Source: Escherichia phage vB_EcoM_Maryam
Sequence record: PQ799574.1
Length of the DNA stretch: 64,000 nucleotides
Strand: one strand, 5' to 3'
How positions within the stretch are numbered: position 1 is the first letter of the stretch; every line of letters starts with the position of its first letter. Positions 1 through 23,954 of the stretch are shown here, in pieces. The notes under the pieces were generated by a model. That model was not told where the DNA came from. It saw nothing but the letters and a program-made list of their open reading frames with translations, and ran no database searches. Made by a program: the position numbers and the translations under genes.

Positions 1-1
1 A

Positions 2-318: not shown

Positions 319-319
319 T

Positions 320-795: not shown

Positions 796-797
796 AT

Positions 798-968: not shown

Positions 969-1072
969 ACCTTGGTGGGCGGCTAGATGGGAAACTGTAG
1001 AGCCAGAGCCGGAAGAACCGGTTTACACTGATGAAGAAACAGTATATAATGAACCAACGATAAATGACTTAA

Positions 1073-1576: not shown

Positions 1577-1587
1577 AAATAATAAAT

Positions 1588-1618
1588 ACCCTTATCTATT
1601 TAAGGTAAGGGTTTTATT
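1588..1618 (+). terminator. stem-loop (ACCCTTA / TAAGGGT, 7 bp) followed by TTTATT, directly before gene 49 ATG
   Basis: Inverted repeat 1588-1594 / 1606-1612 read from sequence; could act as terminator and/or translational control hairpin for gene 49. Confidence 0.45.
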
Positions 1619-2092
1619 ATGTTATTGACTGGCAAATTATATAAAGAAGAAAAACAGAAATTTTATGATGCACAAAATGGTAAATGCTTAATTTGCCAAC
1701 GAGAACTAAATCCTGACGTTCAAGCTAATCACCTCGACCATGACCATGAATTAAATGGACCAAAAGCAGGAAAGGTGCGTGGATTGCTTTGTAATCTCTG
1801 CAATGCCGCAGAAGGTCAAATGAAGCATAAATTTAATCGTTCTGGCTTAAAGGGACAAGGTGTTGATTATCTTGAATGGTTAGAAAATTTACTTACTTAT
1901 TTAAAATCCGATTACACCCAAAATAATATTCACCCTAACTTCGTTGGAGATAAATCAAAGGAATTTTCTCGTTTAGGAAAAGAGGAAATGATGGCTGAGA
2001 TGCTTCAAAGAGGATTTGAATATAATGAATCTGACACTAAAACACAATTAATAGCTTCATTTAAGAAGCAGCTTAGAAAGAGTTTAAAATGA
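1619..2092 (+). CDS. 49: endonuclease VII (Holliday junction resolvase)
   Basis: 157 aa, MLLTGKLYKEEKQKFYDAQNGKCLICQ... matches recalled T4 gp49; zinc-binding Cys cluster. Confidence 0.95.
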   Translation: MLLTGKLYKEEKQKFYDAQNGKCLICQRELNPDVQANHLDHDHELNGPKAGKVRGLLCNLCNAAEGQMKHKFNRSGLKGQGVDYLEWLENLLTYLKSDYTQNNIHPNFVGDKSKEFSRLGKEEMMAEMLQRGFEYNESDTKTQLIASFKKQLRKSLK

Positions 2093-3906
2093 CAATTGAA
2101 AAAGAAATTGAAGGATTGATTCATAAAACTAATAAAGACCTTTTAAACGAGAATGCTAATAAAGATTCTCGTGTTTTTCCAACTCAACGGGACCTTATGG
2201 CTGGTATTGTGTCTAAACACATTGCCAAAAATATGGTCCCGTCTTTTATTATGAAAGCGCATGAAAGCGGAATTATTCATTTCCATGATATTGATTATTC
2301 CCCTGCTCTTCCATTTACTAATTGTTGTTTAGTAGATTTAAAAGGAATGCTTGAAAACGGATTTAAGCTAGGTAATGCGCAGATTGAAACTCCTAAATCA
2401 ATTGGCGTTGCTACTGCAATTATGGCACAAATTACTGCGCAAGTTGCTTCCCATCAATATGGCGGAACGACTTTTGCGAATGTAGATAAAGTACTTTCTC
2501 CTTATGTTAAACGCACCTATGCAAAACATATTGAGGATGCAGAAAAATGGCAAATCGCTGATGCGTTGAATTATGCCCAGTCTAAAACAGAAAAAGACGT
2601 ATACGATGCATTCCAAGCTTATGAATATGAAGTAAATACTCTTTTTAGTTCAAACGGACAAACTCCTTTTGTAACAATTACATTTGGTACGGGAACTGAC
2701 TGGACTGAACGAATGATTCAGAAAGCAATTCTGAAAAATCGTATTAAAGGTCTCGGTCGTGATGGGATAACTCCTATTTTCCCTAAGCTTGTTATGTTCG
2801 TCGAAGAAGGTGTTAATCTTTATAAAGACGATCCGAACTATGATATTAAACAGCTTGCTCTAGAGTGCGCAAGCAAAAGAATGTATCCTGACATCATTTC
2901 GGCTAAGAACAATAAAGCTATTACTGGTTCATCTGTTCCTGTTTCTCCAATGGGTTGCCGTAGTTTCTTGAGCGTATGGAAAGATTCGACTGGTAATGAA
3001 ATTCTTGATGGACGTAATAATCTTGGTGTTGTAACACTGAATCTTCCTCGTATCGCATTAGATTCTTATATTGGAACACAGTTCAATGAACAGAAATTTA
3101 TCGAATTGTTCAATGAGCGAATGGATTTGTGTTTTGAAGCTTTGATGTGTAGAATTAGTTCCTTAAAAGGAGTTAAAGCAACTGTTGCTCCTATTCTTTA
3201 CCAAGAAGGTGCATTCGGGGTTCGTCTTAAACCTGATGACGACATAATTGAGTTATTTAAAAACGGTAGAAGTTCAGTGTCTTTAGGATACATTGGTATT
3301 CACGAATTGAATATTCTTGTCGGTCGTGATATTGGACAAGAAATTTTAACTAAAATGAATGCTCATCTTAAACAGTGGACTGAAAGAACCGGATTTGCTT
3401 TTAGTTTATATTCGACTCCTGCTGAAAACCTTTGTTATCGCTTCTGTAAACTCGATACAGAAAAATATGGAAGCGTAAAAGATGTTACAGATAAAGGCTG
3501 GTACACTAACAGTTTCCATGTTTCAGTAGAAGAAAATATTACTCCGTTTGAAAAGATTTCTCGTGAAGCGCCATATCATTTCATTGCGACAGGTGGTCAC
3601 ATTTCTTATGTTGAACTTCCTGATATGAAAAATAACTTAAAGGGTCTTGAGGCCGTATGGGATTATGCTGCACAACATTTAGATTATTTTGGTGTTAACA
3701 TGCCGGTAGATAAATGTTTTACGTGTGGAAGTACCCATGAAATGACTCCTACTGAAAACGGATTTGTTTGTTCTATCTGTGGAGAAACTGATCCTAAAAA
3801 GATGAACACAATAAGAAGAACATGTGGTTATTTGGGAAATCCGAACGAACGCGGATTTAATCTCGGTAAAAATAAAGAAATCATGCATAGGGTTAAACAC
3901 CAATGA
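2089..3906 (+). CDS. nrdD: anaerobic ribonucleotide reductase large subunit NrdD (intron-less)
   Basis: 605 aa continuous ORF; glycyl-radical C-terminal region (RRTCGYLG) and Cys cluster; ATGA overlap with gene 49. Confidence 0.95.
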   Translation: MTIEKEIEGLIHKTNKDLLNENANKDSRVFPTQRDLMAGIVSKHIAKNMVPSFIMKAHESGIIHFHDIDYSPALPFTNCCLVDLKGMLENGFKLGNAQIETPKSIGVATAIMAQITAQVASHQYGGTTFANVDKVLSPYVKRTYAKHIEDAEKWQIADALNYAQSKTEKDVYDAFQAYEYEVNTLFSSNGQTPFVTITFGTGTDWTERMIQKAILKNRIKGLGRDGITPIFPKLVMFVEEGVNLYKDDPNYDIKQLALECASKRMYPDIISAKNNKAITGSSVPVSPMGCRSFLSVWKDSTGNEILDGRNNLGVVTLNLPRIALDSYIGTQFNEQKFIELFNERMDLCFEALMCRISSLKGVKATVAPILYQEGAFGVRLKPDDDIIELFKNGRSSVSLGYIGIHELNILVGRDIGQEILTKMNAHLKQWTERTGFAFSLYSTPAENLCYRFCKLDTEKYGSVKDVTDKGWYTNSFHVSVEENITPFEKISREAPYHFIATGGHISYVELPDMKNNLKGLEAVWDYAAQHLDYFGVNMPVDKCFTCGSTHEMTPTENGFVCSICGETDPKKMNTIRRTCGYLGNPNERGFNLGKNKEIMHRVKHQ

Positions 3907-4373
3907 ATTACGATAGATTTTATCCATGTGATTTTGTGAATGGCCCTGGATGCAGGGTCGTTCTTTTCGTTACAGGTTGTTTGCATAAATGCGAAGGGTG
4001 TTATAATAAATCAACATGGAATGCTAGAAATGGTATTCCATTCACTGGTGAAACACTAGAACAATTGATTGAATGTTTGAATAATGATTATATAGAAGGA
4101 TTGACTATAACCGGAGGTGACCCTCTCTATCCTGATAATCGAGATGTTATTCATTGCATTGTTCAAACAGTAAAAAATCTTTATCCCAATAAAAGCATTT
4201 GGTTGTGGACAGGATATAAATTTGAAGATATTAAACAACTAGAAATGCTTAAATATGTTGATGTTATTATTGATGGGAAGTATGAGAAAAATCTTCCGAC
4301 TAAAAAGCTATGGCGAGGATCAGATAATCAGCGGCTTTGGTCAAATACCGATGGGGTGTGGAAACATGATTAA
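3903..4373 (+). CDS. nrdG: anaerobic RNR activating protein NrdG (radical SAM)
   Basis: 156 aa; CxxxCxxC motif (CLHKCEGC); ATGA overlap with nrdD. Confidence 0.9.
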   Translation: MNYDRFYPCDFVNGPGCRVVLFVTGCLHKCEGCYNKSTWNARNGIPFTGETLEQLIECLNNDYIEGLTITGGDPLYPDNRDVIHCIVQTVKNLYPNKSIWLWTGYKFEDIKQLEMLKYVDVIIDGKYEKNLPTKKLWRGSDNQRLWSNTDGVWKHD

Positions 4374-4479
4374 ATTGAATTATATTATGGATACTATAAA
4401 TGATATGATTTTTCATTTTGGTCCAGAATTTTATTCGCAATATAGTTTAGTGCTTATCAATGCTTGGTTAATCAATTAA
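4366..4479 (+). CDS. small hypothetical ORF (37 aa)
   Basis: ATG at 4366 overlapping nrdG stop; ORF track gives longer out-of-frame overlap 4255..4479. Confidence 0.3.
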   Translation: MIKLNYIMDTINDMIFHFGPEFYSQYSLVLINAWLIN

Positions 4480-4488
4480 GGGTAAAAT

Positions 4489-4704
4489 ATGTATAAATTT
4501 CGTAAAGGTTTAGCTGATTTTCTTACAACTGTAACATTCTTTCTGTTTATGGCAGTTGGAGCTATTTTTCTTATTCCTTTTATTGTTGTATTTTTCGTTA
4601 TTAGTTTAATTTCTCCAGAAAAGGGCTTATCTTCTAGTGAGTTCAATGAGCGTCTGGATAAAATTACTAACAAGCTGAATGCTGTTCTTGATAAAAAGGC
4701 TTAA
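4489..4704 (+). CDS. small membrane protein
   Basis: 71 aa with long hydrophobic stretch FFLFMAVGAIFLIPFIVVFFVISLI. Confidence 0.5.
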   Translation: MYKFRKGLADFLTTVTFFLFMAVGAIFLIPFIVVFFVISLISPEKGLSSSEFNERLDKITNKLNAVLDKKA

Positions 4705-4706
4705 TT

Positions 4707-5018
4707 ATGATTAGTTTTGAGCGGTATGTAGTAGAGAGTTGGAATGGTTTTGATATGTTCGGTAATGACTATTATTTCTATGAATGTAGTCTGAACCCAA
4801 GCTTCTGGGCTGGACGTGAACAAGACCTCGAAGAAATCAACGCTCGTGCCGATTTGTTAGGTGAACTGCCTACTACTTATTTCACCTTTGATGAATCCGG
4901 CTTCGTTATCCAGGTTTATTTCCCTGAAGAAAATTCTGGTGATGATTCTGTTAATCCTCCTTATTGGGCTTACCAAGGAATTATTTCTCGTGGAACAAAA
5001 CTCGAACTTAAAGAATAA
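4707..5018 (+). CDS. hypothetical protein
   Basis: ORF track 103 aa. Confidence 0.5.
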   Translation: MISFERYVVESWNGFDMFGNDYYFYECSLNPSFWAGREQDLEEINARADLLGELPTTYFTFDESGFVIQVYFPEENSGDDSVNPPYWAYQGIISRGTKLELKE

Positions 5019-5313
5019 GATTGAAGTCTATGGAATTCCAGATGAAGTAGGTCGTTGTCCTGGATGTCAATCAGTTACAAAACTTCTAAAGGAGCTCAAT
5101 GCTCCTTTTACTTTCTATAAAGTTCTTACAAATAACGGTAAGATTGAGTATGATCGTCCACTGATTGTATCTCTTGCTAAACGCGCTGGATTCACATCTC
5201 TTAACATTCGTTATCCAGTCATTTTCATTAATGATTCTAGACAAAAGAACATTAAACACTTCAAAGAAACTCTCATTTCACTTGGATATGATAGAGATAT
5301 CATAGAAGATTAA
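4988..5313 (+). CDS. glutaredoxin/thioredoxin-like protein (NrdH-like, CPGC motif); start codon uncertain
   Basis: Frame of ORF 4861..5313 contains KIEVYGIPDEVGRCPGCQ; no ATG after upstream stop, GTG at 4988 or other non-AUG start possible. Confidence 0.45.
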
Positions 5314-5316
5314 GAC

Positions 5317-5338
5317 GGGCCCTTTGGGCCTTTCTTTC
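5317..5338 (+). terminator. GC hairpin (GGCCC ttt GGGCC) plus T-rich tail
   Basis: Inverted repeat read from sequence, directly after ORF ending 5313. Confidence 0.5.
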
Positions 5339-5411
5339 TCACATTCTGTATATTACCATTCTAAGCTATCGTTCCCTTCTTATCATTCCCTAAAATAATT
5401 TTCACAAAGTT

Positions 5412-5441
5412 GTTTACAACGAGCTCAAACTGTGGTATTAT
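5412..5441 (+). promoter_or_regulatory. T4-type early promoter (GTTTAC ... TATTAT)
   Basis: -35-like GTTTAC 5412-5417 and -10-like TATTAT 5436-5441, upstream of ORF at 5472. Confidence 0.45.
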
Positions 5442-5471
5442 TAACACATGAATTGCCTTTGAGGAATTGAT

Positions 5472-5648
5472 ATGGTTGATAAAGAGATTAAAATTGACCA
5501 GTATTATCGTGTTAACGGACATATCGTTATTGTTACAGCAGTCGATGATCTAGATGTTCATTATACTGTGATTAAATGGAACAAACGTATGATTTGTGAT
5601 CGTGCTGTATTTAGTTCAGTTGCTAAGGAAATTAAACTCCATGGGTAA
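5472..5648 (+). CDS. small hypothetical protein (58 aa)
   Basis: ATG 5472 preceded by GAGGA; not in ORF track (<60 aa). Confidence 0.4.
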   Translation: MVDKEIKIDQYYRVNGHIVIVTAVDDLDVHYTVIKWNKRMICDRAVFSSVAKEIKLHG

Positions 5649-5934
5649 AACGTATCGTCGTAAAGACTTAAAAGTGCGTGATTATGACTATTTCGGAAAG
5701 CGTAAAGCTCCTGATGGGGTAAGTCATAAAGATATGGTTGAAAACATTTTTCGCTCAGATAAATGGCGTAGAATGAAAGGCATTGATTCAGAAGTTAAAG
5801 ATGAGCTAAATCGCCAATTACGCGGTGAAGTAAGAAAGTTGAAAAAATCAGTTTACATTGATGATGATTTTGATTATAATACTTCTCAACGAGTTGCTAA
5901 ACGTAAATCAAACGAGTGTTATCGTTACAGCTGA
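5641..5934 (+). CDS. hypothetical basic protein
   Basis: ORF track 5596..5934; start moved to ATG 5641 which overlaps upstream stop. Confidence 0.5.
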   Translation: MGKTYRRKDLKVRDYDYFGKRKAPDGVSHKDMVENIFRSDKWRRMKGIDSEVKDELNRQLRGEVRKLKKSVYIDDDFDYNTSQRVAKRKSNECYRYS

Positions 5935-5941
5935 GGAAAAT

Positions 5942-6073
5942 ATGAATATCAAACGAATGCTTTTTAAGCAGGGGTTATACACTTTAAATGTTACTCCAAA
6001 AGGTGATACAACTAAGTGGTCAGTAAATGACTGGATTAAATTTATTGATGAAAATGGTAATTGGGAAATTTAA
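5942..6073 (+). CDS. small hypothetical ORF
   Basis: ATG 5942 with GAGGA upstream; in frame with ORF track 5858..6073. Confidence 0.35.
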   Translation: MNIKRMLFKQGLYTLNVTPKGDTTKWSVNDWIKFIDENGNWEI

Positions 6074-6274
6074 ATGAATCCTGAATCTAAATTATCGCAG
6101 CGAATTGCCGAAGCTCGTCGTCAGTTCTTTGAAAATATGATAGCACAAGGTATTGATGACGAAGTTTTTCTAAACTGGTTTTGGAATCACAAATATTCAA
6201 GTTGCTCAGGAGCAATATTAATATCAGCCGCAATGATGTATGAAGGCTGGAAGGGTGCCAAACGGTTTAGCTAA
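6074..6274 (+). CDS. hypothetical protein
   Basis: ORF track 66 aa. Confidence 0.5.
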   Translation: MNPESKLSQRIAEARRQFFENMIAQGIDDEVFLNWFWNHKYSSCSGAILISAAMMYEGWKGAKRFS

Positions 6275-6291
6275 GGGCTTCGGCCCTTTTT
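6274..6291 (+). terminator. GGGC-TTCG-GCCC hairpin plus T-run
   Basis: Tetraloop hairpin followed by TTTTT. Confidence 0.55.
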
Positions 6292-6326
6292 GGATAATAA
6301 AATTTTAATGCAATTGAGGATAATGT

Positions 6327-6653
6327 ATGACTATTCAAATTAAAAACGCCATCAATTCTTACGCATATGATAAAGTAGTTTCTTTGTTAGAAAAAGGCGA
6401 TATTGTAACTCCTCAAATTTTGGATAAATGGGAAAAAGAGCTTCATCAAATGATGAAACAGAATGATCAGAAGATTGGACGCAATACTGTCCGTGAATTG
6501 TTGGTTCAATATATCTTGTCAGAATTTGATGTTAAAGCTTTTGGTGTAGAATCTAAAGCTTATCAAAAGCATGAAATTTCCGATAAAACTATTCGTCGCA
6601 TGAAAAATCAACGCAAGAAAAAATTTGCAGACCTGAAAATTACTAAGGTATAA
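6327..6653 (+). CDS. hypothetical protein
   Basis: ORF track 108 aa. Confidence 0.5.
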   Translation: MTIQIKNAINSYAYDKVVSLLEKGDIVTPQILDKWEKELHQMMKQNDQKIGRNTVRELLVQYILSEFDVKAFGVESKAYQKHEISDKTIRRMKNQRKKKFADLKITKV

Positions 6654-6655
6654 TT

Positions 6656-6871
6656 ATGAACGAAGCTCTTATTAACGATTTGCGTCTTGCCGGATATGAA
6701 GTAAATACAAACGGCAATGGTTTAACTCAAATTGAAGGAAATGGATTCATCCTTGAGTATGAATTTAGCCAATGGTGGTTATATGCCAATTACGGCGAAT
6801 TGATTGAATATGTTGACCAATTTGATTCACTAGATGCAGCTCTTGGAGCGGCTAAGTTGATGAATGTATGA
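6656..6871 (+). CDS. hypothetical protein
   Basis: ORF track 71 aa. Confidence 0.5.
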   Translation: MNEALINDLRLAGYEVNTNGNGLTQIEGNGFILEYEFSQWWLYANYGELIEYVDQFDSLDAALGAAKLMNV

Positions 6872-7137
6872 AATTTATTAATATTTCTATTACTATTGAA
6901 AATTATGGCATTTTCTATGTTGACCAATACATGAAAATTTCATTTTTCCCAAATAAGACTGGTGTTGGATATTGGGAAAGCCATGTTTCTGAATTAAATG
7001 AAAGTGAATATGTTAGTACACATGAAAAGTTTTTAGACTTTTTATATCATGCTGATCTAACTAGTCATTATATAGATATTCATGAATTTAAAAAGATGAT
7101 GGAGAAAGTATTCCAAGCATACTGTTTACTTAGATAA
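6868..7137 (+). CDS. hypothetical protein
   Basis: ORF track 89 aa. Confidence 0.5.
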   Translation: MKFINISITIENYGIFYVDQYMKISFFPNKTGVGYWESHVSELNESEYVSTHEKFLDFLYHADLTSHYIDIHEFKKMMEKVFQAYCLLR

Positions 7138-7150
7138 CTGATATCCTCTA

Positions 7151-7190
7151 TGCTTTAAGATAGATCTTCAAATATTATGATATAATAGAT
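7151..7190 (+). promoter_or_regulatory. possible middle-type promoter (MotA-box-like TGCTTTA plus TATTAT) upstream of gene 55
   Basis: TGCTTTA at 7151-7157 and TATTAT about 15 nt downstream. Confidence 0.3.
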
Positions 7191-7215
7191 CTATGAATTG
7201 AGCTAAGAGGTGAAA

Positions 7216-7773
7216 ATGTCAGAAACTAAGCCTAAATATAATTACGTAAACAATAAAGAGCTTTTACAAGCTATTATTGATTGGAAAACAGAATTAGCAA
7301 ATAATAAAGACCCAAATAAAGTAGTTCGTCAGAATGATACTATCGGATTAGCCATTATGCTTATTGCAGAAGGCTTATCTAAGCGTTTCAACTTTTCAGG
7401 ATACACCCAGTCTTGGAAACAAGAAATGATTGCAGATGGTATAGAAGCTTCTATTAAGGGGCTTCACAATTTTGATGAAACGAAATATAAAAACCCACAT
7501 GCATATATAACTCAAGCTTGTTTTAATGCATTCGTCCAGCGTATTAAAAAAGAACGTAAGGAAGTTGCAAAGAAATATAGTTACTTCGTTCACAATGTCT
7601 ATGACAGTCGTGACGACGATATGGTTGCGTTAGTAGATGAAACTTTTATTCAAGACATCTACGATAAAATGACGCATTACGAAGAATCAACCTATAGAAC
7701 ACCGGGGGCTGAAAAGAAAAGTGTTGTAGACGATTCTCCTAGTTTGGATTTTTTATATGAGGCTAACGATTAA
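7216..7773 (+). CDS. 55: late-transcription sigma factor gp55
   Basis: 185 aa from ATG 7216 ([23 protein letters not shown]...), recalled T4 gp55; ORF track starts 6 nt upstream at GTG. Confidence 0.9.
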
Positions 7774-7975
7774 CCTCTCCGGATTCTTGGAAGAAATACC
7801 TGAAGTTGAAGCTATTCCCTATTTACTTAAAATGTATCTCAGGGAAGTTTTAGCTCTTGACATTGATATTGATCCAGAAAATCCGTATGATACCGCTTTT
7901 AAATCTAATGGTGTAGAATTAAATTACAGGTATCATTTAACAGATGATGATTTTTATTTTATATTAGAGAAATAA
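7757..7975 (+). CDS. hypothetical protein
   Basis: ORF track 72 aa; start uncertain. Confidence 0.4.
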
Positions 7976-7976
7976 T

Positions 7977-8294
7977 ATGACTGATAAACCCGAAATTAAT
8001 GATGAAGTGGAAAAGCTTATTTCTTCTATTGAAGAAAAGAACCGTCTTGAAGCAGAAAGAAAAGCAAATAAGTTATTGTCTAAAAACAAACGCGAACTGA
8101 ATCGTCTTTATAAGCATGCTCAGATTGCGGCTGAAAATAATAATTTTGCTCAATACGAATATGCTATCAAGAAAAGTCGGGATATTCTAAAACAGCCATA
8201 TAACGATGAACTCATCAGTATTCTTTGGAAGACTACTAGATCGCAAATTGAGGATATGATTGATGCTTACACACGTAAAATTCAAGCGTCTTAA
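7977..8294 (+). CDS. hypothetical protein
   Basis: ORF track 105 aa. Confidence 0.5.
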   Translation: MTDKPEINDEVEKLISSIEEKNRLEAERKANKLLSKNKRELNRLYKHAQIAAENNNFAQYEYAIKKSRDILKQPYNDELISILWKTTRSQIEDMIDAYTRKIQAS

Positions 8295-8466
8295 AATTAA
8301 TGCAGGATTTACTGAATCTTTGAATGGTCATCTTTGTGTGAAAATTTCTGAAAAAGAATACCATGATAGTTCAATTAAAGAAGTTAATCCTCCTATTGTA
8401 AGAGCAGACCCTAATATGAAAGTGTGGGTTGATTCTTATCAAGTCAAAAAATGGTGGCAGTTATGA
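8260..8466 (+). CDS. hypothetical protein
   Basis: ORF track 68 aa. Confidence 0.45.
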   Translation: MMLTHVKFKRLKINAGFTESLNGHLCVKISEKEYHDSSIKEVNPPIVRADPNMKVWVDSYQVKKWWQL

Positions 8467-8709
8467 AAGATGAACATCCAGACTTCTGAAATAGATTATA
8501 ATAAAATTCGTTCCTCTAAAGAGGAAATGATGAGACTCTTTAAAGCGTCTCATGATAAAGCTAAAGCAGAAGGAACTATAAAATATAAGCGCATAAAATT
8601 TAAAAGTTCTAACGAGCCTCTGTATGGCGTATTATGTGGATAGGAGCTTCGGCTCCTATATTGCTTTATAAATTTTTGGTAAAATAAACCAAAACAAAGA
8701 GGATATTAA

Positions 8710-9912
8710 ATGAAAGTATGTATTTTTATGGCTCGAGGTCTTGAAGGTTGTGGTGTAACAAAATTCTCACTCGAGCAACGTGATTGGTTTATTAAAAATG
8801 GTCATGAAGTAACTTTGGTTTATGCTAAAGATAAATCATTTACTCGTAATTGCGCGCATGATTATAAATCATTTTCAATTCCGGTTTTATTGGCAAAAGA
8901 ATATGATAAAACACTTAAGCTGGTAAATGATTGTGATATTCTAATTATCAATTCAGTTCCTGCTACTTCGGTTGAAGAAGACACTATTAATAACTATAAA
9001 AAAATTATTGATAACATTAAACCTTCTGTTCGTGTTGTAGTTTATCAACATGACCATTCTTCTCTTTCTTTGCGCCGAAATTTGGGATTAGAAGAAACTG
9101 TTCGTCGAGCTGATGTTATTTTTAGCCATTCTGATAATGGTGATTTTAATAAAGTTCTGATGAAAGAATGGTATCCTGAAACAGTTTCTCTGTTTGATGA
9201 TATTGAAGAAGCACCGACAGTATATAACTTTCAGCCTCCTATGGATATTGCGAAGGTTCGGTCAACCTACTGGAAAGATGTTTCTGAAATTAACATGAAT
9301 ATCAACCGTTGGATTGGTCGTACGACTACATGGAAAGGTTTTTATCAGATGTTTGATTTTCATGAAAAACATCTTAAACCTGCAGGACTAAGTACTATTA
9401 TGGAAGGTCTGGAACGTTCTCCAGCGTTCATTCCTATTAAAGAAAAAGGAATTCCATACGAGTATTATCGTCTTCATCAAGTAGACCAAATTAAAATTGC
9501 TCCTAATTTGCCAACGCAAATTCTTGACCGTTATGTAAATAGCGAAATGCTTGAACGTATGAGTAAATCCGGTTTTGGTTATCAGTTGAGTAAGTTGGAT
9601 AAAAAATATCTACAACGTTCTTTAGAATATACTCATCTCGAGCTTGGTGCATGTGGAACAATTCCGGTATTTTGGAAATCTACTGGCGAAAATTTAAAAT
9701 TCCGTGTTGATAATACTCCGCTAATTTCGCATGATAGCGGTATCGTTTGGTTTGATGAAAATGATATGGAATCAACGTTTGAACGTATTAAAGAACTGTC
9801 ATCTGACCGAGCTCTTTATGACCGTGAGCGAGAAAAAGCGTATGAATTTTTGTATCAGCATCAAGATTCAAGCTTCTGCTTTAAAGAACAGTTTGACATT
9901 ATTACAAAATAA
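8710..9912 (+). CDS. agt: DNA alpha-glucosyltransferase
   Basis: 400 aa, matches recalled T4 alpha-gt in size and position between 55 and 47. Confidence 0.85.
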   Translation: MKVCIFMARGLEGCGVTKFSLEQRDWFIKNGHEVTLVYAKDKSFTRNCAHDYKSFSIPVLLAKEYDKTLKLVNDCDILIINSVPATSVEEDTINNYKKIIDNIKPSVRVVVYQHDHSSLSLRRNLGLEETVRRADVIFSHSDNGDFNKVLMKEWYPETVSLFDDIEEAPTVYNFQPPMDIAKVRSTYWKDVSEINMNINRWIGRTTTWKGFYQMFDFHEKHLKPAGLSTIMEGLERSPAFIPIKEKGIPYEYYRLHQVDQIKIAPNLPTQILDRYVNSEMLERMSKSGFGYQLSKLDKKYLQRSLEYTHLELGACGTIPVFWKSTGENLKFRVDNTPLISHDSGIVWFDENDMESTFERIKELSSDRALYDREREKAYEFLYQHQDSSFCFKEQFDIITK

Positions 9913-9929
9913 AGGGCTTCGGCCCTTTA
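9912..9929 (+). terminator. AGGGC-TTCG-GCCCT hairpin
   Basis: Tetraloop hairpin directly after agt stop. Confidence 0.5.
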
Positions 9930-9951
9930 GCTTTATACGGAGTTTGATATA

Positions 9952-10092
9952 ATGATATTTCTTGGATATGTGATACTTTTTCTTGCATTTTATCTATTCA
10001 CTAGAGCATGTTGGATTGGGTTCTTTAGCACTCCAGATGGATTTATTTCAATAATTTTATTTTGCATTTCAATGACGGTTCTTGATATATGA
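9952..10092 (+). CDS. small membrane protein (46 aa) between agt and 47
   Basis: ATG 9952, hydrophobic MIFLGYVILFLAFYLF...; TGA overlaps gene 47 ATG. Confidence 0.4.
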   Translation: MIFLGYVILFLAFYLFTRACWIGFFSTPDGFISIILFCISMTVLDI

Positions 10093-11108
10093 AAATTTTA
10101 AATTTAGGTGATTGGCATTTAGGCGTTAAAGCTGATGATGAGTGGGTTCAATCCATTCAGTTGGATGGAATTAAACAAGCAATAGAATATTCTAAGAAAA
10201 ATGGAATTACTACCTGGATTCAATACGGCGATATTTTTGATGTGCGAAAAGCGATCACGCATAAAACTATGGAGTTTGCTCGTGAAATAGTTCAAATGCT
10301 TGATGATGCTGGTATTACCCTACATACTATTGTAGGAAACCATGATATGCACTTTAAAAATACTTTAACTCCAAATGCCTCTACTGAGCTTTTGGCTAAA
10401 TATCCTAATGTTAAAGTATATGATAAGCCTACTACAGTAGATTTTGACGGATGTTTAATTGATTTAATTCCTTGGATGTGTGAAGAAAATACTGGTGAAA
10501 TTCTTGAACACATCAAAACTTCATCTGCTTCTTTTTGTGTTGGTCACTGGGAACTGAATGGATTTTATTTTTATAAAGGAATGAAATCTCATGGTCTTGA
10601 ACCTGATTTCCTTAAGACTTATAAAGAAGTGTGGTCTGGTCACTTCCATACTATTTCTGAGGCTGCAAACGTCAGATATATTGGGACACCATGGACACTA
10701 ACTGCAGGTGACGAGAATGACCCTCGTGGGTTCTGGATGTTTGATACAGAAACAGAACGAATGGAATTTATTCCAAACAATACTACCTGGCATCGTAGAA
10801 TTCATTATCCATTTAAAGGAAAAATTGACTATAAAGATTTTACAAATCTATCAGTACGTGTTATAGTAACTGAAGTAGACAAAAATCTAACGAAGTTCGA
10901 ATCTGAACTAGAAAAAGTTGTGCATTCATTACGAGTTGTGTCAAAGATTGATAACTCTGTCGAGTCAGATGACAGTGAAGAAGTTGAAGTTCAATCTCTT
11001 CAGACGTTGATGGAAGAATACATTAATGCAATTCCAGACATCACTGATTCTGATCGCGAAGCACTTATTCAATATGCAAATCAGTTATATGTAGAGGCAA
11101 CACAATGA
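10089..11108 (+). CDS. 47: recombination endonuclease subunit gp47 (Mre11-like)
   Basis: 339 aa; phosphoesterase motifs (GDWH, GNHD); recalled T4 gp47. Confidence 0.9.
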   Translation: MKILNLGDWHLGVKADDEWVQSIQLDGIKQAIEYSKKNGITTWIQYGDIFDVRKAITHKTMEFAREIVQMLDDAGITLHTIVGNHDMHFKNTLTPNASTELLAKYPNVKVYDKPTTVDFDGCLIDLIPWMCEENTGEILEHIKTSSASFCVGHWELNGFYFYKGMKSHGLEPDFLKTYKEVWSGHFHTISEAANVRYIGTPWTLTAGDENDPRGFWMFDTETERMEFIPNNTTWHRRIHYPFKGKIDYKDFTNLSVRVIVTEVDKNLTKFESELEKVVHSLRVVSKIDNSVESDDSEEVEVQSLQTLMEEYINAIPDITDSDREALIQYANQLYVEATQ

Positions 11109-11368
11109 CTTTTGATGAATTTAAAAATGTTATGATGAGTCAGCATTTTGAATGCGAAGTAAAAGATGATATTGGTCATAAAGAAATTATTGAATATTGG
11201 TTTGAACCGCTAGAGGTTGAAGATAATTGTATTAAAAAGGTTACGGTCTGCACTGACTGGGCTGTATCTTTTAACTTCAACATTTTAGATAATGACACAC
11301 CTAAATCATTACGAGATATGGCTGTATCTTGTATTAAGGATGCATATTGTGAAGTTTTCGACATTTGA
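11105..11368 (+). CDS. hypothetical protein between 47 and 46
   Basis: ORF track 87 aa. Confidence 0.5.
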   Translation: MTFDEFKNVMMSQHFECEVKDDIGHKEIIEYWFEPLEVEDNCIKKVTVCTDWAVSFNFNILDNDTPKSLRDMAVSCIKDAYCEVFDI

Positions 11369-11555
11369 CATTAATGATGAATTCATAGCAAATATTGATT
11401 ATACCGAAGAAGATTCTAGATATGTTGGAATAATTTATATTACATCAAAAACAGCACAAGGTGTTGTTTGCATGGCTGAATTTGATGAATACTTTTTAGA
11501 TTATGATGATATGATAGAATGGTCTAAAAGATACATTAAAAGGAATCTTTTGTGA
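11340..11555 (+). CDS. hypothetical protein between 47 and 46, start uncertain
   Basis: ORF track 11292..11555 overlaps previous ORF; ATG 11340 is alternative start. Confidence 0.4.
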   Translation: MHIVKFSTFDINDEFIANIDYTEEDSRYVGIIYITSKTAQGVVCMAEFDEYFLDYDDMIEWSKRYIKRNLL

Positions 11556-13234
11556 AGAATTTTAAACTAAACCGAGTTAGGTATCAAAATATAATGTCAG
11601 TAGGTGGAAATCCTATTGACATTCAATTAGATAAGGTTCAAAAAACTCTTATTACTGGACGAAATGGCGGTGGTAAGTCTACTATGCTAGAAGCCATCAC
11701 ATTTGGGCTTTTTGGTAAGCCATTTCGTGATGTAAAGAAAGGTCAATTAATAAACAGCACAAATAAGAAAGAACTTTTAGTTGAACTGTGGATGGAATAT
11801 GATGAGAAAAAGTACTATATCAAAAGAGGACAAAAACCAAACGTTTTCGAAATCACCGTTAACGGTACACGTCTTAATGAATCTGCCAGCAGTAAAGATT
11901 TCCAAGCAGAATTTGAACAGCTTATCGGAATGTCATATGCCAGTTTCAAGCAGATTGTTGTCCTTGGTACAGCAGGGTATACCCCTTTCATGGGTTTGTC
12001 GACCCCTGCACGAAGAAAGCTTGTGGAAGACCTGCTTGAGGTAGGAACATTAGCTGAAATGGATAAGCTTAATAAAGCACTAATACGTGAATTAAATTCG
12101 CAGAACCAAGTGCTTGATGTTAAAAAAGATAGTATTATCCAACAAATTAAAATATATAATGATAACGTTGAACGCCAGAAAAAATTGTCTGGTGACAACC
12201 TTACTCGTCTGCAGAATATGTATGATGATTTGGCAAAAGAAGCTAGAACGCTAAAATCGGAAATAGAAGAAGCTAATGAAAGATTAGTTAATATTGTTTT
12301 AGATGAAGACCCGACTGATGCATTTAATAAAATCGGTCAAGAAGCATTTTTAATTAAATCAAAAATTGACTCGTATAATAAAGTCATTAATATGTATCAT
12401 GAAGGTGGATTATGTCCAACCTGTTTGTCACAATTAAGTTCCGGTGATAAAGTTGTTTCTAAAATTAAAGATAAAGTTTCTGAATGTACGCATTCATTTG
12501 AACAGCTTTCAACACACCGTGATAATTTAAAAGTTCTTGTTGATGAATACCGAGATAATATTAAAACCCAGCAGTCGTTGGCAAATGATATTCGCAATAA
12601 AAAGCAATCTCTAATCACGACGGTAGATAAAGCTAAAAAAGTTAAAGCGGCTATAGAAAAAGCATCTTCTGAGTTTATTGACCATGCTGATGAAATAGCA
12701 CTGCTTCAAGAAGAACTTGATAAAATTGTTAAGACAAAAACTAATTTAGTAATGGAAAAATACCACCGAGGAATTTTGACTGATATGCTCAAAGATTCTG
12801 GTATTAAAGGTGCTATTATTAAAAAGTACATTCCATTATTTAATAAGCAGATTAACCATTATCTTAAAATAATGGAAGCGGATTATGTGTTTACATTAGA
12901 TGAAGAATTTAATGAGACAATTAAATCCCGTGGTCGTGAAGATTTTAGTTATGCTTCATTTAGTGAAGGTGAAAAGGCACGAATTGATATTGCTCTTTTA
13001 TTTACTTGGCGTGATATTGCTTCTATCGTATCTGGTGTTAGTATTAGTACATTAATTCTTGATGAAGTGTTTGATGGGTCATTTGATGCCGAAGGTATTA
13101 AAGGTGTAGCTAATATTATAAATTCAATGAAAAACACTAATGTTTTTATAATTTCGCATAAAGACCATGACCCGCAAGAATATGGTCAGCATCTTCAAAT
13201 GAAGAAAGTTGGTCGATTTACTATAATGGTTTAA
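11552..13234 (+). CDS. 46: recombination endonuclease subunit gp46 (Rad50-like ATPase)
   Basis: 560 aa; Walker A GRNGGGKST; coiled-coil middle with CPTC zinc hook; GTG start. Confidence 0.9.
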   Translation: MKNFKLNRVRYQNIMSVGGNPIDIQLDKVQKTLITGRNGGGKSTMLEAITFGLFGKPFRDVKKGQLINSTNKKELLVELWMEYDEKKYYIKRGQKPNVFEITVNGTRLNESASSKDFQAEFEQLIGMSYASFKQIVVLGTAGYTPFMGLSTPARRKLVEDLLEVGTLAEMDKLNKALIRELNSQNQVLDVKKDSIIQQIKIYNDNVERQKKLSGDNLTRLQNMYDDLAKEARTLKSEIEEANERLVNIVLDEDPTDAFNKIGQEAFLIKSKIDSYNKVINMYHEGGLCPTCLSQLSSGDKVVSKIKDKVSECTHSFEQLSTHRDNLKVLVDEYRDNIKTQQSLANDIRNKKQSLITTVDKAKKVKAAIEKASSEFIDHADEIALLQEELDKIVKTKTNLVMEKYHRGILTDMLKDSGIKGAIIKKYIPLFNKQINHYLKIMEADYVFTLDEEFNETIKSRGREDFSYASFSEGEKARIDIALLFTWRDIASIVSGVSISTLILDEVFDGSFDAEGIKGVANIINSMKNTNVFIISHKDHDPQEYGQHLQMKKVGRFTIMV

Positions 13235-13248
13235 TTTATAAGAGATTA

Positions 13249-13272
13249 TGCTTTAATTTATTAGAGTATAAT
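13249..13272 (+). promoter_or_regulatory. middle-type promoter (MotA box TGCTTTA plus TATAAT)
   Basis: TGCTTTA 13249-13255, TATAAT 13267-13272. Confidence 0.4.
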
Positions 13273-13289
13273 CTCTATGGAGGAAAAAC

Positions 13290-13478
13290 ATGGAATATTC
13301 AACTGGACAGCATCTATTAACTATTCCTGAAATAAAACGATATATTCTGAGAAATAATTTTTCTAATGAAGAGCATATAGTTACTGAATCTATGCTTAGG
13401 AATGCATTTAAAGCAGAATATACAAAAATAATGTCCAATAGAAATGAAGCTTGGACTGTTACTGATTATTATGACTAA
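13290..13478 (+). CDS. hypothetical protein (gene 45.2-like)
   Basis: ORF track 62 aa; position between 46 and rpbA. Confidence 0.5.
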   Translation: MEYSTGQHLLTIPEIKRYILRNNFSNEEHIVTESMLRNAFKAEYTKIMSNRNEAWTVTDYYD

Positions 13479-13487
13479 AGGTGTATT

Positions 13488-13877
13488 ATGACTAAAATTA
13501 CTGTGAATTATACTGTTGATGTAAAAGATATTCAGCCAAAACACGTGCGTTCTGAATCAAATCCACAAAACCAAAATAAAATTCGTCGCGCATGGGTTTT
13601 GTCTCTTTCTGATAACGCAATGGAAGTTATTCAGAATAAAATTAAATCTGCACCTGCTCGTCATGCGTATTATGAAGCTATCGATCGTGAAGTAAGTAAT
13701 AAATGGATTGAACTAATGCGCAAACATACTACAGAATCCCTAAACGCCGGTGCTAAATTTATTATGACTTCATGTGGTGAACGCCTTGAAGATGATTATT
13801 GTGGTAATGCAGATGAACGTCTAATTGTTGCTGCTCAAATTGTTGCGGAAACAATTGCGGCTGATTTTAATCGTTAA
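13488..13877 (+). CDS. rpbA: RNA polymerase-binding protein RpbA
   Basis: 129 aa, position immediately upstream of gene 45 start; recalled T4 size. Confidence 0.6.
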
Positions 13878-13932
13878 TTGCTTTATTAAATTAGTTATAA
13901 AATTAAATCTCATTTGAATTGAAGGAAATTAC

Positions 13933-13992
13933 ATGAAACTGTCTAAAGATACTACTGCTCTGCTTAAAAATTTCGCTACTATTAACTCGTAA
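13933..13992 (+). pseudogene. 45: sliding clamp gene 45, 5' fragment only (19 codons then TAA)
   Basis: MKLSKDTTALLKNFATINS matches recalled gp45 N-terminus; remainder of the ~228-aa gene absent. Confidence 0.8.
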
Positions 13993-16280: not shown

Positions 16281-16361
16281 TCACTGGCGTCCGAAGACGC
16301 CTTTAGTTTTAAGATTATTACGATAGAACTGCATCACATGTTCGTTATGGAAATTACTCAT
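16281..16361 (-). CDS. stp: Stp peptide (restriction alleviation / PrrC activator)
   Basis: 26-aa [29 protein letters not shown] matching recalled T4 Stp. Confidence 0.8.
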
Positions 16362-17881: not shown

Positions 17882-18439
17882 TTAAATGGAAAGATACCAT
17901 CCATTGTAGTTGCTTTTTCTTACAACCTTACGAAGGTCTTCTCTATCACCGATGAACTTCGGAGTGTACTGGATGACACCTGGATGAATTTCTTTAGTGT
18001 TGAATATAATTATACAGTCCGCGACCTGGTGATTTAGAATGGGCCCTAGATTTATTCCAGAACCATATGGATACTCTCCGCTGCATCCTGTTGTTACAGA
18101 AATCCAACGTGAGTCAGTTTGATGTGTCTTAACTTCTACACGGAGCCCGCAATATTTTGGATGTGCTAAAACATCCCATGCATATGTGTACGGATCATTG
18201 ACATCTTCTTGGCCTTTATTGACATATCCGCTTAGCCAATCTGCTACAAAAAACTCTGCGTACACAGCGATACGGCATCTTTCGATAACTTCTGTCTTAT
18301 CCTGATTTGGGTTTTGTTTTAAAGAGTATCTTGCAGTATCAGCAATTTTGACCTTCATTTCACCAGTCAAGTCACTGTTCGATAGGGTAAATGTCGGAAT
18401 CTGAAATAGTCTCTGTAGCCCCGGATTCGTTTTCTGCAT
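17882..18439 (-). CDS. denB: endonuclease IV DenB
   Basis: 185 aa, size and position (between ndd and rIIB) match recalled T4 DenB. Confidence 0.7.
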   Translation of the reverse strand: MQKTNPGLQRLFQIPTFTLSNSDLTGEMKVKIADTARYSLKQNPNQDKTEVIERCRIAVYAEFFVADWLSGYVNKGQEDVNDPYTYAWDVLAHPKYCGLRVEVKTHQTDSRWISVTTGCSGEYPYGSGINLGPILNHQVADCIIIFNTKEIHPGVIQYTPKFIGDREDLRKVVRKSNYNGWYLSI

Positions 18440-18496
18440 TTAAACTTTCCTTTATGTCGGAATCACTGATATTCATATAATAAATCATAAAACAAA

Positions 18497-18510
18497 AGGG
18501 CCGAAGCCCT
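18497..18510 (-). terminator. AGGGC-UUCG-GCCCU tetraloop hairpin
   Basis: Inverted repeat with CGAA loop on plus strand (UUCG in minus-strand RNA). Confidence 0.45.
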
Positions 18511-18514
18511 TATT

Positions 18515-18709
18515 TTATTTGAATTGTGCAATTCTTTTCTCTAGACATTCAGCATAAGATTTCATTGAGATGAACTGTGAAAGCAGCAGTTCTTGCTCAA
18601 CTGCACTAACCGTTAGAAACTTTGTGCTTTCTAAAAATTTGCTCAGTGCATTAATTTTGAGCATTAATTGATCGTATTCTTCTTTTACTCGTGCTTGATA
18701 ACCTAACAT
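18515..18709 (-). CDS. hypothetical protein between rIIB and denB
   Basis: ORF track 64 aa; bracketed by two copies of the same hairpin. Confidence 0.5.
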   Translation of the reverse strand: MLGYQARVKEEYDQLMLKINALSKFLESTKFLTVSAVEQELLLSQFISMKSYAECLEKRIAQFK

Positions 18710-18716
18710 AATTTTC

Positions 18717-18730
18717 CTTAGTTAAGGGCC
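18717..18730 (-). terminator. AGGGC-UUCG-GCCCU tetraloop hairpin (second copy)
   Basis: Same motif AAGGGCCGAAGCCCTTA as at 18497. Confidence 0.45.
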
Positions 18731-18737
18731 GAAGCCC

Positions 18738-19676
18738 TTATTTAAATTGTTCAGTAACGTCTTCAACTACTTCATATTGGCAGGTACGCATTTTAGCATC
18801 ATTGTAATCAATCGGAATTGATACTACATCACGTGGATGTACTTTAACTTTTACAACTCGGCTGGTTGAACTGCCAAAGTGACGAATATAAGATTTAGAA
18901 CACACATGCAGACCACGAGAACAAGTTTGTGTATCATCGTCATTCACACGAGTACGCGGCATTTTAACTACTTTACCAGGACTGTTATCAAAGGTATTTG
19001 AGTGACAGTCAAAGTAATTGCTGCGAACTACTTTCCAAGCATAGAAGTAACCATCTTCTGTAATTTCAATATCGTTTGCTACCAAGAAATCAAAAAGTCG
19101 AGATACCGCTTTCTGGCTTGGGTTTTCCAGCAGATTTTCCAAGAACGGAAAATAAAATTCAAAGTTTTCGCCTTTTTCCATCGAATCAAGAATACGATCA
19201 ACCAAACCAGACCGCAATTCAATATTTTGATAGAATAAGCTTCCACCTTCAATTCGAACATCGCCGGAAATATATTTTTCAACAGCACGACGAACATTAA
19301 TTTTTTGTGCCGCTTCTTCCAGCTTATCTGCTACAAGCAGATTAAGAATTTCCTGGAAGTTTGAATGAGTATTAGGAGTTGCGTTATAAGTTACACCGTC
19401 AACAGTAATTGAAATGAATTTTTTAGATGCATTCCAAATAATGTCAGATTTAGCAACTGGAGCAATAACTGCATCGCTATTAACTTTAACTGTAATATCA
19501 CCGCTAATAGTAACTTTAGAGCGTTTAGCTTCTTCAGCATTTTTCAAAACACGACGGATTGTGTCAACCGATACATCCTTCCAATAAGCTAATTCCTGCT
19601 GAGTGTAATTACCACTTGAATACAGTTTAACAATTTCAGCTTGTTCGTTTTTGGTCAGGCATTTAATATTGTACAT
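18738..19676 (-). CDS. rIIB: rIIB protein
   Basis: 312 aa, MYNIKCLTKNEQAEIVKLYSSGNYTQQELA...; adjacent to rIIA. Confidence 0.9.
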   Translation of the reverse strand: MYNIKCLTKNEQAEIVKLYSSGNYTQQELAYWKDVSVDTIRRVLKNAEEAKRSKVTISGDITVKVNSDAVIAPVAKSDIIWNASKKFISITVDGVTYNATPNTHSNFQEILNLLVADKLEEAAQKINVRRAVEKYISGDVRIEGGSLFYQNIELRSGLVDRILDSMEKGENFEFYFPFLENLLENPSQKAVSRLFDFLVANDIEITEDGYFYAWKVVRSNYFDCHSNTFDNSPGKVVKMPRTRVNDDDTQTCSRGLHVCSKSYIRHFGSSTSRVVKVKVHPRDVVSIPIDYNDAKMRTCQYEVVEDVTEQFK

Positions 19677-22104: not shown

Positions 22105-22134
22105 ATTATACCACATCCTTGTGGTAAAGTAAAC
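22105..22134 (-). promoter_or_regulatory. T4-type early promoter (GTTTAC ... TATAAT) for rIIA.1/rIIA
   Basis: Reverse complement reads GTTTAC ~18 nt TATAAT. Confidence 0.45.
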
Positions 22135-23954
22135 TACTGGCTCATCCATTCTTTACGAAGGTCAGCATTATCTCCCATGAGCATTTCAAAAAGCTCTTTC
22201 CAGTTCTCAGGAAGTTTAACAACATCATATACTGGGTTTTGAATCATCTCACGATATTCAGATTTTTCCAAAGAGCCAAGTCCCTTAATATAACGGATGC
22301 TATGTTTAGGTAGAGCATCTTTGGCACTCTCATATTCAGCGACTGTATAAAACCATTCTTGTTTTTTACCGACCTGAGCGATGATTACAGGAGTTTTGAC
22401 AAAGCGAATTCGTCCTTGCTCAAACAATTCTGGCCAATTACTAAAAAATCCAAGCAGAGAAGGATAAATGCTTCCTAGACCATCATGGTCAGCATCAGTC
22501 ATAATAGCAATATTATGATAATTCAAGTTTTCAGCTTTTTCACCGAGAACTAATCCAGTGATTGCGCAAATATCAAATAGTTCTTTGTTTTTAAGCATAT
22601 CAGCATATGACATACCCCAACTATTAAGAACTTTACCACGCAATGGATAACCACCATGAAGTTCTTTATCACGAACATCAATAAGATATCCGATAGCCGA
22701 ATCACCCTCAGTCAAGAAAAGAGTCGTGTCAGCATCTTTACCACAAAGATTCGCTTTAATATGTTTATGAACCTTAGCTTTAGAAGCCTTTTTAGCTGCT
22801 TTTGTTTCTGCTGCTTTTTCTGCTGCCAATTTACGAGCCAAAGCAGCTTCAATAATCGGCATTAGAATTGCTTCATTATTTAGAATAGCACGTGAAATCT
22901 TTTTAGCATCAAGCTGAATATGACTACGGATTTCACCAAATGGAGAAGTCAAACGCTCTTTAGTTTGAGAATCAAATCGCATGTTTTTCATATCACGAAC
23001 AAACATAACGATAGTCAAACATTCTTTAACACGTGCTTTAGTTACATCAATTTTGAATTTACGTTTGATTTGTGGAATAAGGTCTTCACAAATATCATCC
23101 ATAACACAGTCAATGTGATGGCCACCATTCTTAGTGTGAATGTTATTCACATAAGTTAATTGACGAAATCCATCCGGTGAACGACCAACCGCAATAGAAC
23201 AATTTTCTTGTTCTTGAACAATAGCATGTTCATCATACTGTCGTGCATATTTCTTAAAATTGCCCTGAACCTTTTTACCATTAAAGGTAAATTGAATATC
23301 AGGATAAACAACAGCAAGTGTCTGGAGACGATCTAGTGTAATATCAAGATAAACTTGGGACAGCTCATTAGTTTCAAATGACATAAAATCAGGAATGAAA
23401 GTAACACGTGTTCCTTTCCATTTTCCAGGAATATCTTCCCATGATTTATTTTCCATGCCATTTGAACAACGAACTACAATATTATTTTGACCATCACCCG
23501 TTTCACCAACAAACATCACAGAAAAAATGTTTGTCAAACTAGAACCAACACCATTCATACCGCCGGTGACACGTTCTTTATCATCACCAAAGTTACCACC
23601 CGCTTTTGGAATAGTCCAAGCAGCAACTGGACCAGGAATTTCTTCACCGGTAGGTGTTTTAACCATCGCTTGTGGAATACCACGACCGTTATCTTCAACT
23701 GTTACTTGATTGTTTTTAATAGTAACATTAATTTTATTTGCGAATTTAAACTTAGTACGAATACCTTCATCGACTGAGTTATCGATAATTTCATCAATAA
23801 GCTTAACAAGACCAGGTACATACTGAACACTTTCCCATTTACCAAACAGAAAGCGCTCATGCATTTCATTAGCAGAAGAGCCAATGTACATGCCACTACG
23901 CTTTTTGATATGTTCAATATCGCTCAGAATTTTAATTTCATTCTTAATCATCAC
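22134..23954 (-). CDS. 39: DNA topoisomerase II large (ATPase) subunit, single fused gp39 (T2-type, no gene 60 split)
   Basis: 606 aa continuous ORF covering both the ATPase domain and the TOPRIM-containing C-terminal part. Confidence 0.9.
   Translation of the reverse strand: MMIKNEIKILSDIEHIKKRSGMYIGSSANEMHERFLFGKWESVQYVPGLVKLIDEIIDNSVDEGIRTKFKFANKINVTIKNNQVTVEDNGRGIPQAMVKTPTGEEIPGPVAAWTIPKAGGNFGDDKERVTGGMNGVGSSLTNIFSVMFVGETGDGQNNIVVRCSNGMENKSWEDIPGKWKGTRVTFIPDFMSFETNELSQVYLDITLDRLQTLAVVYPDIQFTFNGKKVQGNFKKYARQYDEHAIVQEQENCSIAVGRSPDGFRQLTYVNNIHTKNGGHHIDCVMDDICEDLIPQIKRKFKIDVTKARVKECLTIVMFVRDMKNMRFDSQTKERLTSPFGEIRSHIQLDAKKISRAILNNEAILMPIIEAALARKLAAEKAAETKAAKKASKAKVHKHIKANLCGKDADTTLFLTEGDSAIGYLIDVRDKELHGGYPLRGKVLNSWGMSYADMLKNKELFDICAITGLVLGEKAENLNYHNIAIMTDADHDGLGSIYPSLLGFFSNWPELFEQGRIRFVKTPVIIAQVGKKQEWFYTVAEYESAKDALPKHSIRYIKGLGSLEKSEYREMIQNPVYDVVKLPENWKELFEMLMGDNADLRKEWMSQ

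Follow-up and report, generated by a model that had tools for sequence, protein, structure and literature searches.

Paired C(UUCG)G hairpins on either side of denB.1 in a T4-like phage belong to a known intercistronic class

Extra-stable hairpins with a C(UUCG)G tetraloop were reportedly described between the cistrons of T4 by Tuerk et al. in PNAS in 1988, and predicted Rho-independent terminators of the same phage are said to be listed by Miller et al. in 2003 and in phiSITE. Stable hairpins have established roles in E. coli mRNA decay. The UUCG tetraloop itself was first described in T4 mRNA (PMC4371310). For the Tequatrovirus vB_EcoM-UFV13, a table of predicted Rho-independent terminators (Table 2 of PMC5931544) already holds both of the sequences considered here, one entered as 'denB.1 ... 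Minus CAAATAAATAAGGGCTTCGGCCCTTTTGTTTTAA' and the other, called by ARNold, as 'rIIB ... Plus TCCTTAGTTAAGGGCCGAAGCCCTTATTTAAATT'; the same table also contains sites at 39.1, soc, uvsX-40, regA, a-gt and stp. Two further bodies of work bear on short repeats in these genomes. One concerns PeSLs, composites of about 100 bp in which a sigma-70-like early promoter sits between a stem-loop and a ribosome-binding site, and which mediate a documented shuffling of cassettes in T4-type phages (Arbiol 2010, PMC2839356; Comeau 2014, PMC4122927). The other shows that T4 undergoes deletions and duplications at microhomologies of 2-10 bp anywhere (PMC9391042).

The window analyzed here, a 64,000-nt stretch of Escherichia phage vB_EcoM_Maryam (PQ799574.1), comes from a T4-like phage (Tequatrovirus), and its rIIB-denB locus (Table 1) is 98.5% identical to that of Yersinia phage fPS-90 and 95.5% identical to that of T4. 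The 64-aa open reading frame that an earlier sequence-only reading had placed between rIIB and denB is a real gene, denB.1, whose product matches Pfam PF21825 (crAss001_48-related; E 3e-19) and phrog_774, a family of unknown function. Comparison of the protein with solved PDB structures gave no meaningful match, and the main text of a CRISPRi-ART screen of T4 mentions neither denB nor denB.1. Between denB.1 and denB lies a 38-aa remnant of a longer frame, which matches phrog_2237 over its N-terminal 15 aa only. An Rfam search of the locus returned no family.

Table 1. Features of the rIIB-denB locus and collinear blocks of the window.
Feature	Position in window	Strand	Description
rIIB	18738..19676	minus	312 aa; upstream gene; ends ...EQFK-UAA
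Exact 20-nt repeat, copy 2	18724..18743		plus-strand sequence AAGGGCCGAAGCCCTTATTT
Hairpin A	18723..18740	minus	UAAGGGC-UUCG-GCCCUUA, 7 bp; followed by ACUAAGGAAAAUUAUG
denB.1	18515..18709	minus	64 aa; named denB.1 in the T4 annotation; ribosome-binding site AAGGA at 18719-18715
Exact 20-nt repeat, copy 1	18496..18515		plus-strand sequence AAGGGCCGAAGCCCTTATTT
Hairpin B	18489..18511	minus	AAGGGC-UUCG-GCCCUU (18511-18496) plus UUGUUUU (18495-18489)
38-aa ORF	18372..18488	minus	remnant of RB32ORF268c (109 aa in relatives); overlaps the denB start
denB	17882..18439	minus	endonuclease IV, 185 aa; downstream gene
Left block	73-13988		T4 48638 to 32548; inverted
Middle block	13989-49106		T4 ~163530 to 168903, then 1 to 30862
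Right block	49101-64000		T4 162031 to 147590; inverted

As presented, the window breaks collinearity with T4 and other Tequatroviruses, its middle 35 kb (motA' to gene 62') being inverted relative to both flanks. At the left junction (13988/13989) gene 45 is truncated after 19 codons and motA after 24; the right junction falls at 49101-49106, and the window lacks gene 44, arn.3 and arn.4, the larger part of genes 45 and motA, and the beginning of gene 62. A simple viable inversion was discarded as the cause, since essential genes are cut short or lost at the junctions. Since the junction arrangement is not viable, the non-collinearity is probably an artefact of assembly, scaffolding or joining, or else the mark of a defective genome. 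The hairpins are unaffected, since the 35-kb collinear block encloses them with a margin of 4.5 kb and their local context matches hundreds of genomes. Several other departures were noted in passing. Positions 1-13988 are 100% identical to part of PV290051.1 (vB_EcoT_BCU-2, 46.9 kb); the window has nothing corresponding to segA and b-gt, which T4 carries between uvsX and gene 42; gene 39 (22134-23951, minus) is a single 605-aa frame, and T4 ~2794-3910 (part of gene 60 including the bypass region, 60.1 and mobA) has no counterpart in the window, so that this appears to be a phage without the T4 split of gene 39/60.

Inspection of the intergenic regions revealed that the 20-mer AAGGGCCGAAGCCCTTATTT occurs exactly twice and that its copies flank denB.1; across 100 dinucleotide-preserving shuffles, matches with up to three mismatches averaged 0.01. 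The sequence-only reading had located the first copy correctly and had set the second at 18716-18735, 8 nt too low. The likeness between the copies, which are spaced 228 nt apart, goes past the 20-mer to about 33 nt with one 4-nt indel, and the extended portion, ACAATT[T/C]AAATAA, supplies the final codons QFK-stop of rIIB and denB.1 alike. On the mRNA (minus, coding) strand both copies read AAGGGC-UUCG-GCCCUU, with a core of GGGC-UUCG-GCCC that presents a four-base UUCG loop and its closing C-G pair. Folding of 41-nt contexts, a check that had been proposed together with the original observation, predicts both hairpins to be stable, with energies of -12.7 kcal/mol for hairpin B (z -4.0) and -10.9 kcal/mol for hairpin A (z -2.6).

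The surroundings of the two hairpins are not alike. The 5' arm of hairpin A opens with the rIIB stop codon UAA (18740-18738), and ACUAAGGAAAAUUAUG, adjoining the hairpin on its 3' side, carries the ribosome-binding site and start codon of denB.1; the ribosome-binding site begins 3 nt past the stem, leaving a gap of only 14 nt between the hairpin and the ATG. On the sense strand ACUAAGGAAAAUU comes next in place of a U tract, an arrangement that is not that of an intrinsic terminator, and a minus-strand terminator scan found no match at this hairpin. The possibility that hairpin A is part of a more extensive regulatory RNA structure was rejected, since a 101-nt fold is no more stable than its shuffles (z -0.83). 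Hairpin B starts 3 nt past the denB.1 stop codon, and the last two U's of its stem together with its tail read UUUUGUUUU, which gives the stem-then-U-tract shape of an intrinsic terminator. A consensus terminator scan scores hairpin B on the minus strand and hairpin A on the plus strand only, and the fPS-90 record carries an annotated terminator at the position of hairpin B. The stem of hairpin B is short (6 bp, about -10.6 kcal/mol), and its efficiency is uncertain for that reason. No promoter-like site was detected on the minus strand from 18372 to 18723, nor between hairpin B and the denB start codon.

The motif is also abundant elsewhere in the window, where CTTCGG is found 30 times as against 13.0 +/- 3.7 in shuffled sequence. 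Twelve C(UUCG)G hairpins have a stem of at least 6 bp, and all twelve carry UUCG on the sense strand; the recurrences reported earlier at 6274, 9912, 24005, 47949 and 51731 are confirmed, with more besides. By the T4 map the twelve lie after 55.3, a-gt.2, a-gt, stp, denB.1, rIIB, 39.1, soc, uvsX, regA, 37 and 35, the one after uvsX sitting inside gene 40. When upstream frames of at least 40 aa are counted, 11 of the 12 hairpins start from 4 nt before to 59 nt after the upstream stop codon. U tracts follow only about 4 of the 12, and four (after rIIB, stp, regA and gene 37) share a layout of stop codon, hairpin, ribosome-binding site and AUG with no U tract. The hairpin at 16286-16301 (minus, GGCGUC-UUCG-GACGCC) is itself coding: it gives the C-terminal GVFGRQ of Stp (26 aa), with the stop codon directly next. 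A further observation is that one identical 16-mer hairpin, AAGGGCTTCGGCCCTT, stands at four gene ends, after 55.3 (6273-6288), a-gt (9912-9927), denB.1 (18496-18511) and rIIB (18724-18739), which may reflect copying or else convergence on a favoured purine-rich 5' arm.

Comparison across T4-like phages shows that a UNCG hairpin follows rIIB, or in Moonvirus denB.1, in all phages examined from nine genera, eight of them classified in Tevenvirinae and the ninth being Muldoonvirus. Tequatrovirus has a UUCG hairpin after rIIB and the same hairpin with a U tract after denB.1; Winklervirus (Gravdalen) likewise has UUCG hairpins in both places, the one after denB.1 having a different stem. Marfavirus (R3_1) and Kanagawavirus (IME523, PEi20) carry a UUCG hairpin, and Dhakavirus (JS10) a UCCG hairpin, between rIIB and denB.1 and none after denB.1. 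Moonvirus (Moon) has no hairpin after rIIB, which overlaps denB.1 at TAATG, and a UUCG hairpin with a U tract after denB.1. The gene itself is absent from Mosigvirus (ZQ3), Gelderlandvirus (Melville) and Muldoonvirus (PS2), where rIIB is followed by one UUCG hairpin and then by an ORF268c homologue, with no denB.1 remnant. Among more distant T4-like phages, Slopekvirus and Lazarusvirus have a non-UNCG hairpin after rIIB, and Krischvirus has none directly after it.

The stems of these hairpins vary by genus (GGGGAC/GUCCCC, GGAGGC/GCCUCC, AGCCC/GGGCU, GGGCC/GGCCC and others). Across 11 hairpins, compensatory changes occur in five of the six stem pairs, the closing C-G pair is invariant, and 96.7% of cells are paired, a percentage inflated by the derivation of the structure from the same loop-aligned sequences, which affects the compensatory changes less. 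None of 500 shuffles reached the observed pairing or covariation score. The compensatory stem changes across genera indicate that the RNA structure is under selection, and the differing Winklervirus stems indicate that a bracket around denB.1 does not depend on sequence identity.

One loss of denB.1 can be reconstructed. Relative to Kanagawavirus IME523, phage Entb_45 of the same genus has lost the gene except for about 14 nt of 3'-terminal sequence, which now adjoin the UUCG hairpin; the deletion starts at the 3' foot of that sole hairpin and stops inside denB.1, and the parent arrangement has one hairpin only. Read from these two sequences, the comparison shows that denB.1 was lost here, not gained, and because part of its 3' end remains and the parent had a single hairpin, the loss was not a hairpin-to-hairpin event. 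The survey as a whole shows denB.1 to have been lost in several lineages and to be fixed in Tequatrovirus. Its proteins usually end in RI..F; the AQFK-stop ending of the Tequatrovirus proteins matches the end of rIIB and looks derived.

A search for rIIB at a 95% identity threshold matched 495 Tequatrovirus records, and one for denB.1 at an 80% threshold matched 496, which makes denB.1 essentially universal in the genus. We searched 50,697 phage records with a synthetic 333-nt deletion junction composed of the rIIB 3' end, one hairpin and the denB upstream region. At E <= 1e-110 there were no matches; at E <= 1e-20 the query matched 499 records, and among the matches listed all were in two pieces with denB.1 in between, the best single-piece E-values in this control being 1e-69 to 1e-84. 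Loss of denB.1 within the genus with a single hairpin left behind, the pattern expected of a PeSL, was seen in none of the 499 matching records. The earlier proposal that the flanking repeats provide short homology for gain or loss of a cassette thus finds no support in Tequatrovirus, and the comparison of gene presence that was to accompany it comes out in divided form: the expected state of one hairpin and no denB.1 is missing within the genus and does occur across genera, but the loss that can be reconstructed did not join hairpin to hairpin.

The truly variable segment in Tequatrovirus is the next frame, RB32ORF268c, homologues of which lie between rIIB/denB.1 and denB in nine T4-like genera. 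About half of the records listed have it in full, as two-piece matches spanning ~975 bp, while T4 and the window share an in-frame internal deletion of 213 nt with AAA(AG) microhomology at the breakpoint, to which the 38-aa frame of the window is due. Shigella phage Sf24 (827-1117) has a tandem duplication of about 265 bp that takes in the 3' end of denB.1, hairpin B and the 5' end of ORF268c, yielding a chimeric frame and a third copy of the hairpin. Neither rearrangement is bounded by hairpins. Of 10 Tequatrovirus loci sampled, 6 have identical hairpins A and B and 4 do not: in T4 each copy has an indel, the loop of hairpin A is UUUG in two IMG/VR contigs, and an extra G is confined to hairpin B in one phage. 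In Sf24 the same extra G is present in both. The UUUG loops imply that site A does not strictly need the exact UUCG sequence. Only 5 contigs with denB.1 loci were obtained from IMG/VR, a sample too small to survey the population.

We consider it probable that hairpins A and B act at the RNA level as T4 C(UUCG)G hairpins, hairpin B as a terminator or attenuator and hairpin A as a non-terminating element, and that the two are copies from one module. The sense-strand bias, the proximity to stop codons and the covariation all argue for function as RNA. Hairpin B with UUUUGUUUU would end the rIIB-denB.1 transcription unit as a factor-independent terminator or attenuator, and it is probably leaky, given that no promoter is detectable between it and denB. 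Hairpin A, lying within the transcript, most likely does not terminate sense transcription; from its anatomy and the known roles of such structures in mRNA decay, it would block 3'-to-5' exonucleases and so shield the rIIB message, and it would also keep the denB.1 ribosome-binding site free of base-pairing with upstream RNA. Termination at B and stabilisation by A are predictions from the anatomy and from what is generally known of mRNA decay in E. coli. The sequence-only reading had offered terminators or RNA stabilisers as roles for the pair; the former suits hairpin B, with its canonical U tract, the fPS-90 annotation and the UFV13 entry, whereas hairpin A, having no U tract on the sense strand, fits a stabilising or punctuating role better. 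Both would come from one module of ~20-33 nt, made up of a stop-codon context and a hairpin, that was copied or converted within the Tequatrovirus lineage. Their identity looks like such a lineage-specific copy or conversion and is not needed for function, as equivalent hairpins elsewhere have different stems.

Identical hairpins could instead act on DNA, as recombination linkers forming a small promoter-less analogue of a PeSL, such that exchange between them excises or inserts denB.1 and leaves one hairpin behind. We regard this as unlikely. An exact 20-nt direct repeat that extends with one indel to some 33 nt at a 228-nt spacing is suitable material for exchange, the shared extra G of Sf24 is compatible with gene conversion, and PeSL shuffling is known in T4-type phages (PMC2839356, PMC4122927). 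The state of Mosigvirus, Gelderlandvirus and Muldoonvirus, with one hairpin and neither denB.1 nor a remnant, would be its product, and single deletions from a two-hairpin ancestor could explain why some genera have the hairpin ahead of denB.1, one has it behind the gene and two have a hairpin on each side. Set against this are the near-universal presence of denB.1 in Tequatrovirus, the lack of any contiguous deletion junction among 50,697 phage records, the Entb_45 endpoint inside denB.1 in a lineage whose parent had a single hairpin, the non-identical stems of the Winklervirus bracket, and the divergence of A from B in 4 of 10 loci; moreover, microhomology rearrangements occur anywhere in T4 (PMC9391042) and account for the ORF268c and Sf24 changes, so that a special linker is unnecessary. 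The likeness to PeSL cassettes extends to intergenic stem-loops around a small non-essential frame and to certain relatives with a single element and no such frame; unlike PeSLs, neither A nor B is followed by a detectable promoter, and no excision product was found among 499 genomes. For want of the promoter component, A and B are not PeSLs. A broader proposal would make the stop codon and UUCG hairpin, with or without the ribosome-binding site, a promoter-less linker subject to ectopic gene conversion between neighbouring intergenic regions, with the two-hairpin bracket ancestral to Tevenvirinae and hairpin exchange repeatedly giving rise to the denB.1-less Mosigvirus, Gelderlandvirus and Muldoonvirus. 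We think this improbable; if true, it would extend PeSL-type modular shuffling to terminator-only elements.

Two other readings keep the function in RNA and assign hairpin A a different principal task. It might mainly terminate antisense (plus-strand) transcription into rIIB, with A and B together forming bidirectional terminators, as the T-rich plus-strand tails after both hairpins (TTTAAATTGT, ATTTTATTTG), their terminator-like scores and the plus-strand ARNold call for the rIIB-proximal hairpin of UFV13 (PMC5931544) would allow. On that strand, though, the loop is CGAA, which has no UUCG stability bonus, UUCG falls on the sense strand in 12 of 12 family members, and the A-rich and T-rich flanks of a palindrome give a plus-strand score almost automatically. 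The collinear block has no upstream plus-strand genes and no plus-strand late-promoter consensus TATAAATA; an antisense late promoter upstream of A was rejected on the latter ground. We judge the antisense role to be very unlikely. It is also doubtful, and in our estimation improbable, that hairpin A is mainly translational. On this view the 18 nt separating the rIIB stop codon from the ribosome-binding site of denB.1 would be folded up, so that ribosomes terminating on rIIB come to lie beside the denB.1 start and denB.1 translation is coupled to rIIB. The stop codon within the stem and the ribosome-binding site 3 nt beyond it are what such coupling would call for, the layout recurs at three further sites, and genera with no hairpin at the junction have a direct gene overlap (TAATG, Moonvirus); yet the hairpin is equally conserved where the next gene differs or a U tract comes next, so coupling is not its general role.

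The preferred explanation, RNA-level action as T4-type hairpins, thus describes a textbook RNA motif found again at two sites that had previously been listed as predicted terminators, and it matters little beyond annotation. There is a modest comparative gain in that a UNCG hairpin after rIIB is kept with covarying stems as its position relative to denB.1 shifts, a clear natural case of an RNA whose structure, rather than its sequence, is under selection, and the fixation of denB.1 in Tequatrovirus hints that the PF21825 protein is useful there.

Set beside the described systems, the microhomology-driven deletions and tandem amplifications of T4 (PMC9391042) explain the ORF268c deletion, the Sf24 duplication and the Entb_45 denB.1 deletion. 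The hairpins do not serve as breakpoints in these events, the one exception being that an end of the Entb_45 deletion adjoins the hairpin's 3' foot. Among the predicted T4 and Tequatrovirus terminators, hairpin B is present with a near-identical sequence after denB.1 on the minus strand, and hairpin A appears under rIIB, entered solely as a plus-strand site, its sense strand being without the defining U tract. The closest counterparts are the T4 C(UUCG)G hairpins, with which A and B have in common the UUCG loop and its closing C-G pair, the short G-C stem, the intercistronic position on the message strand and the large number of copies in a genome. Nothing essential differs from them, the particular feature here being two neighbouring copies identical over 20 nt. 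Both hairpins are members of that class, and the finding is a correct and ordinary case of a known motif that is already annotated in relatives.
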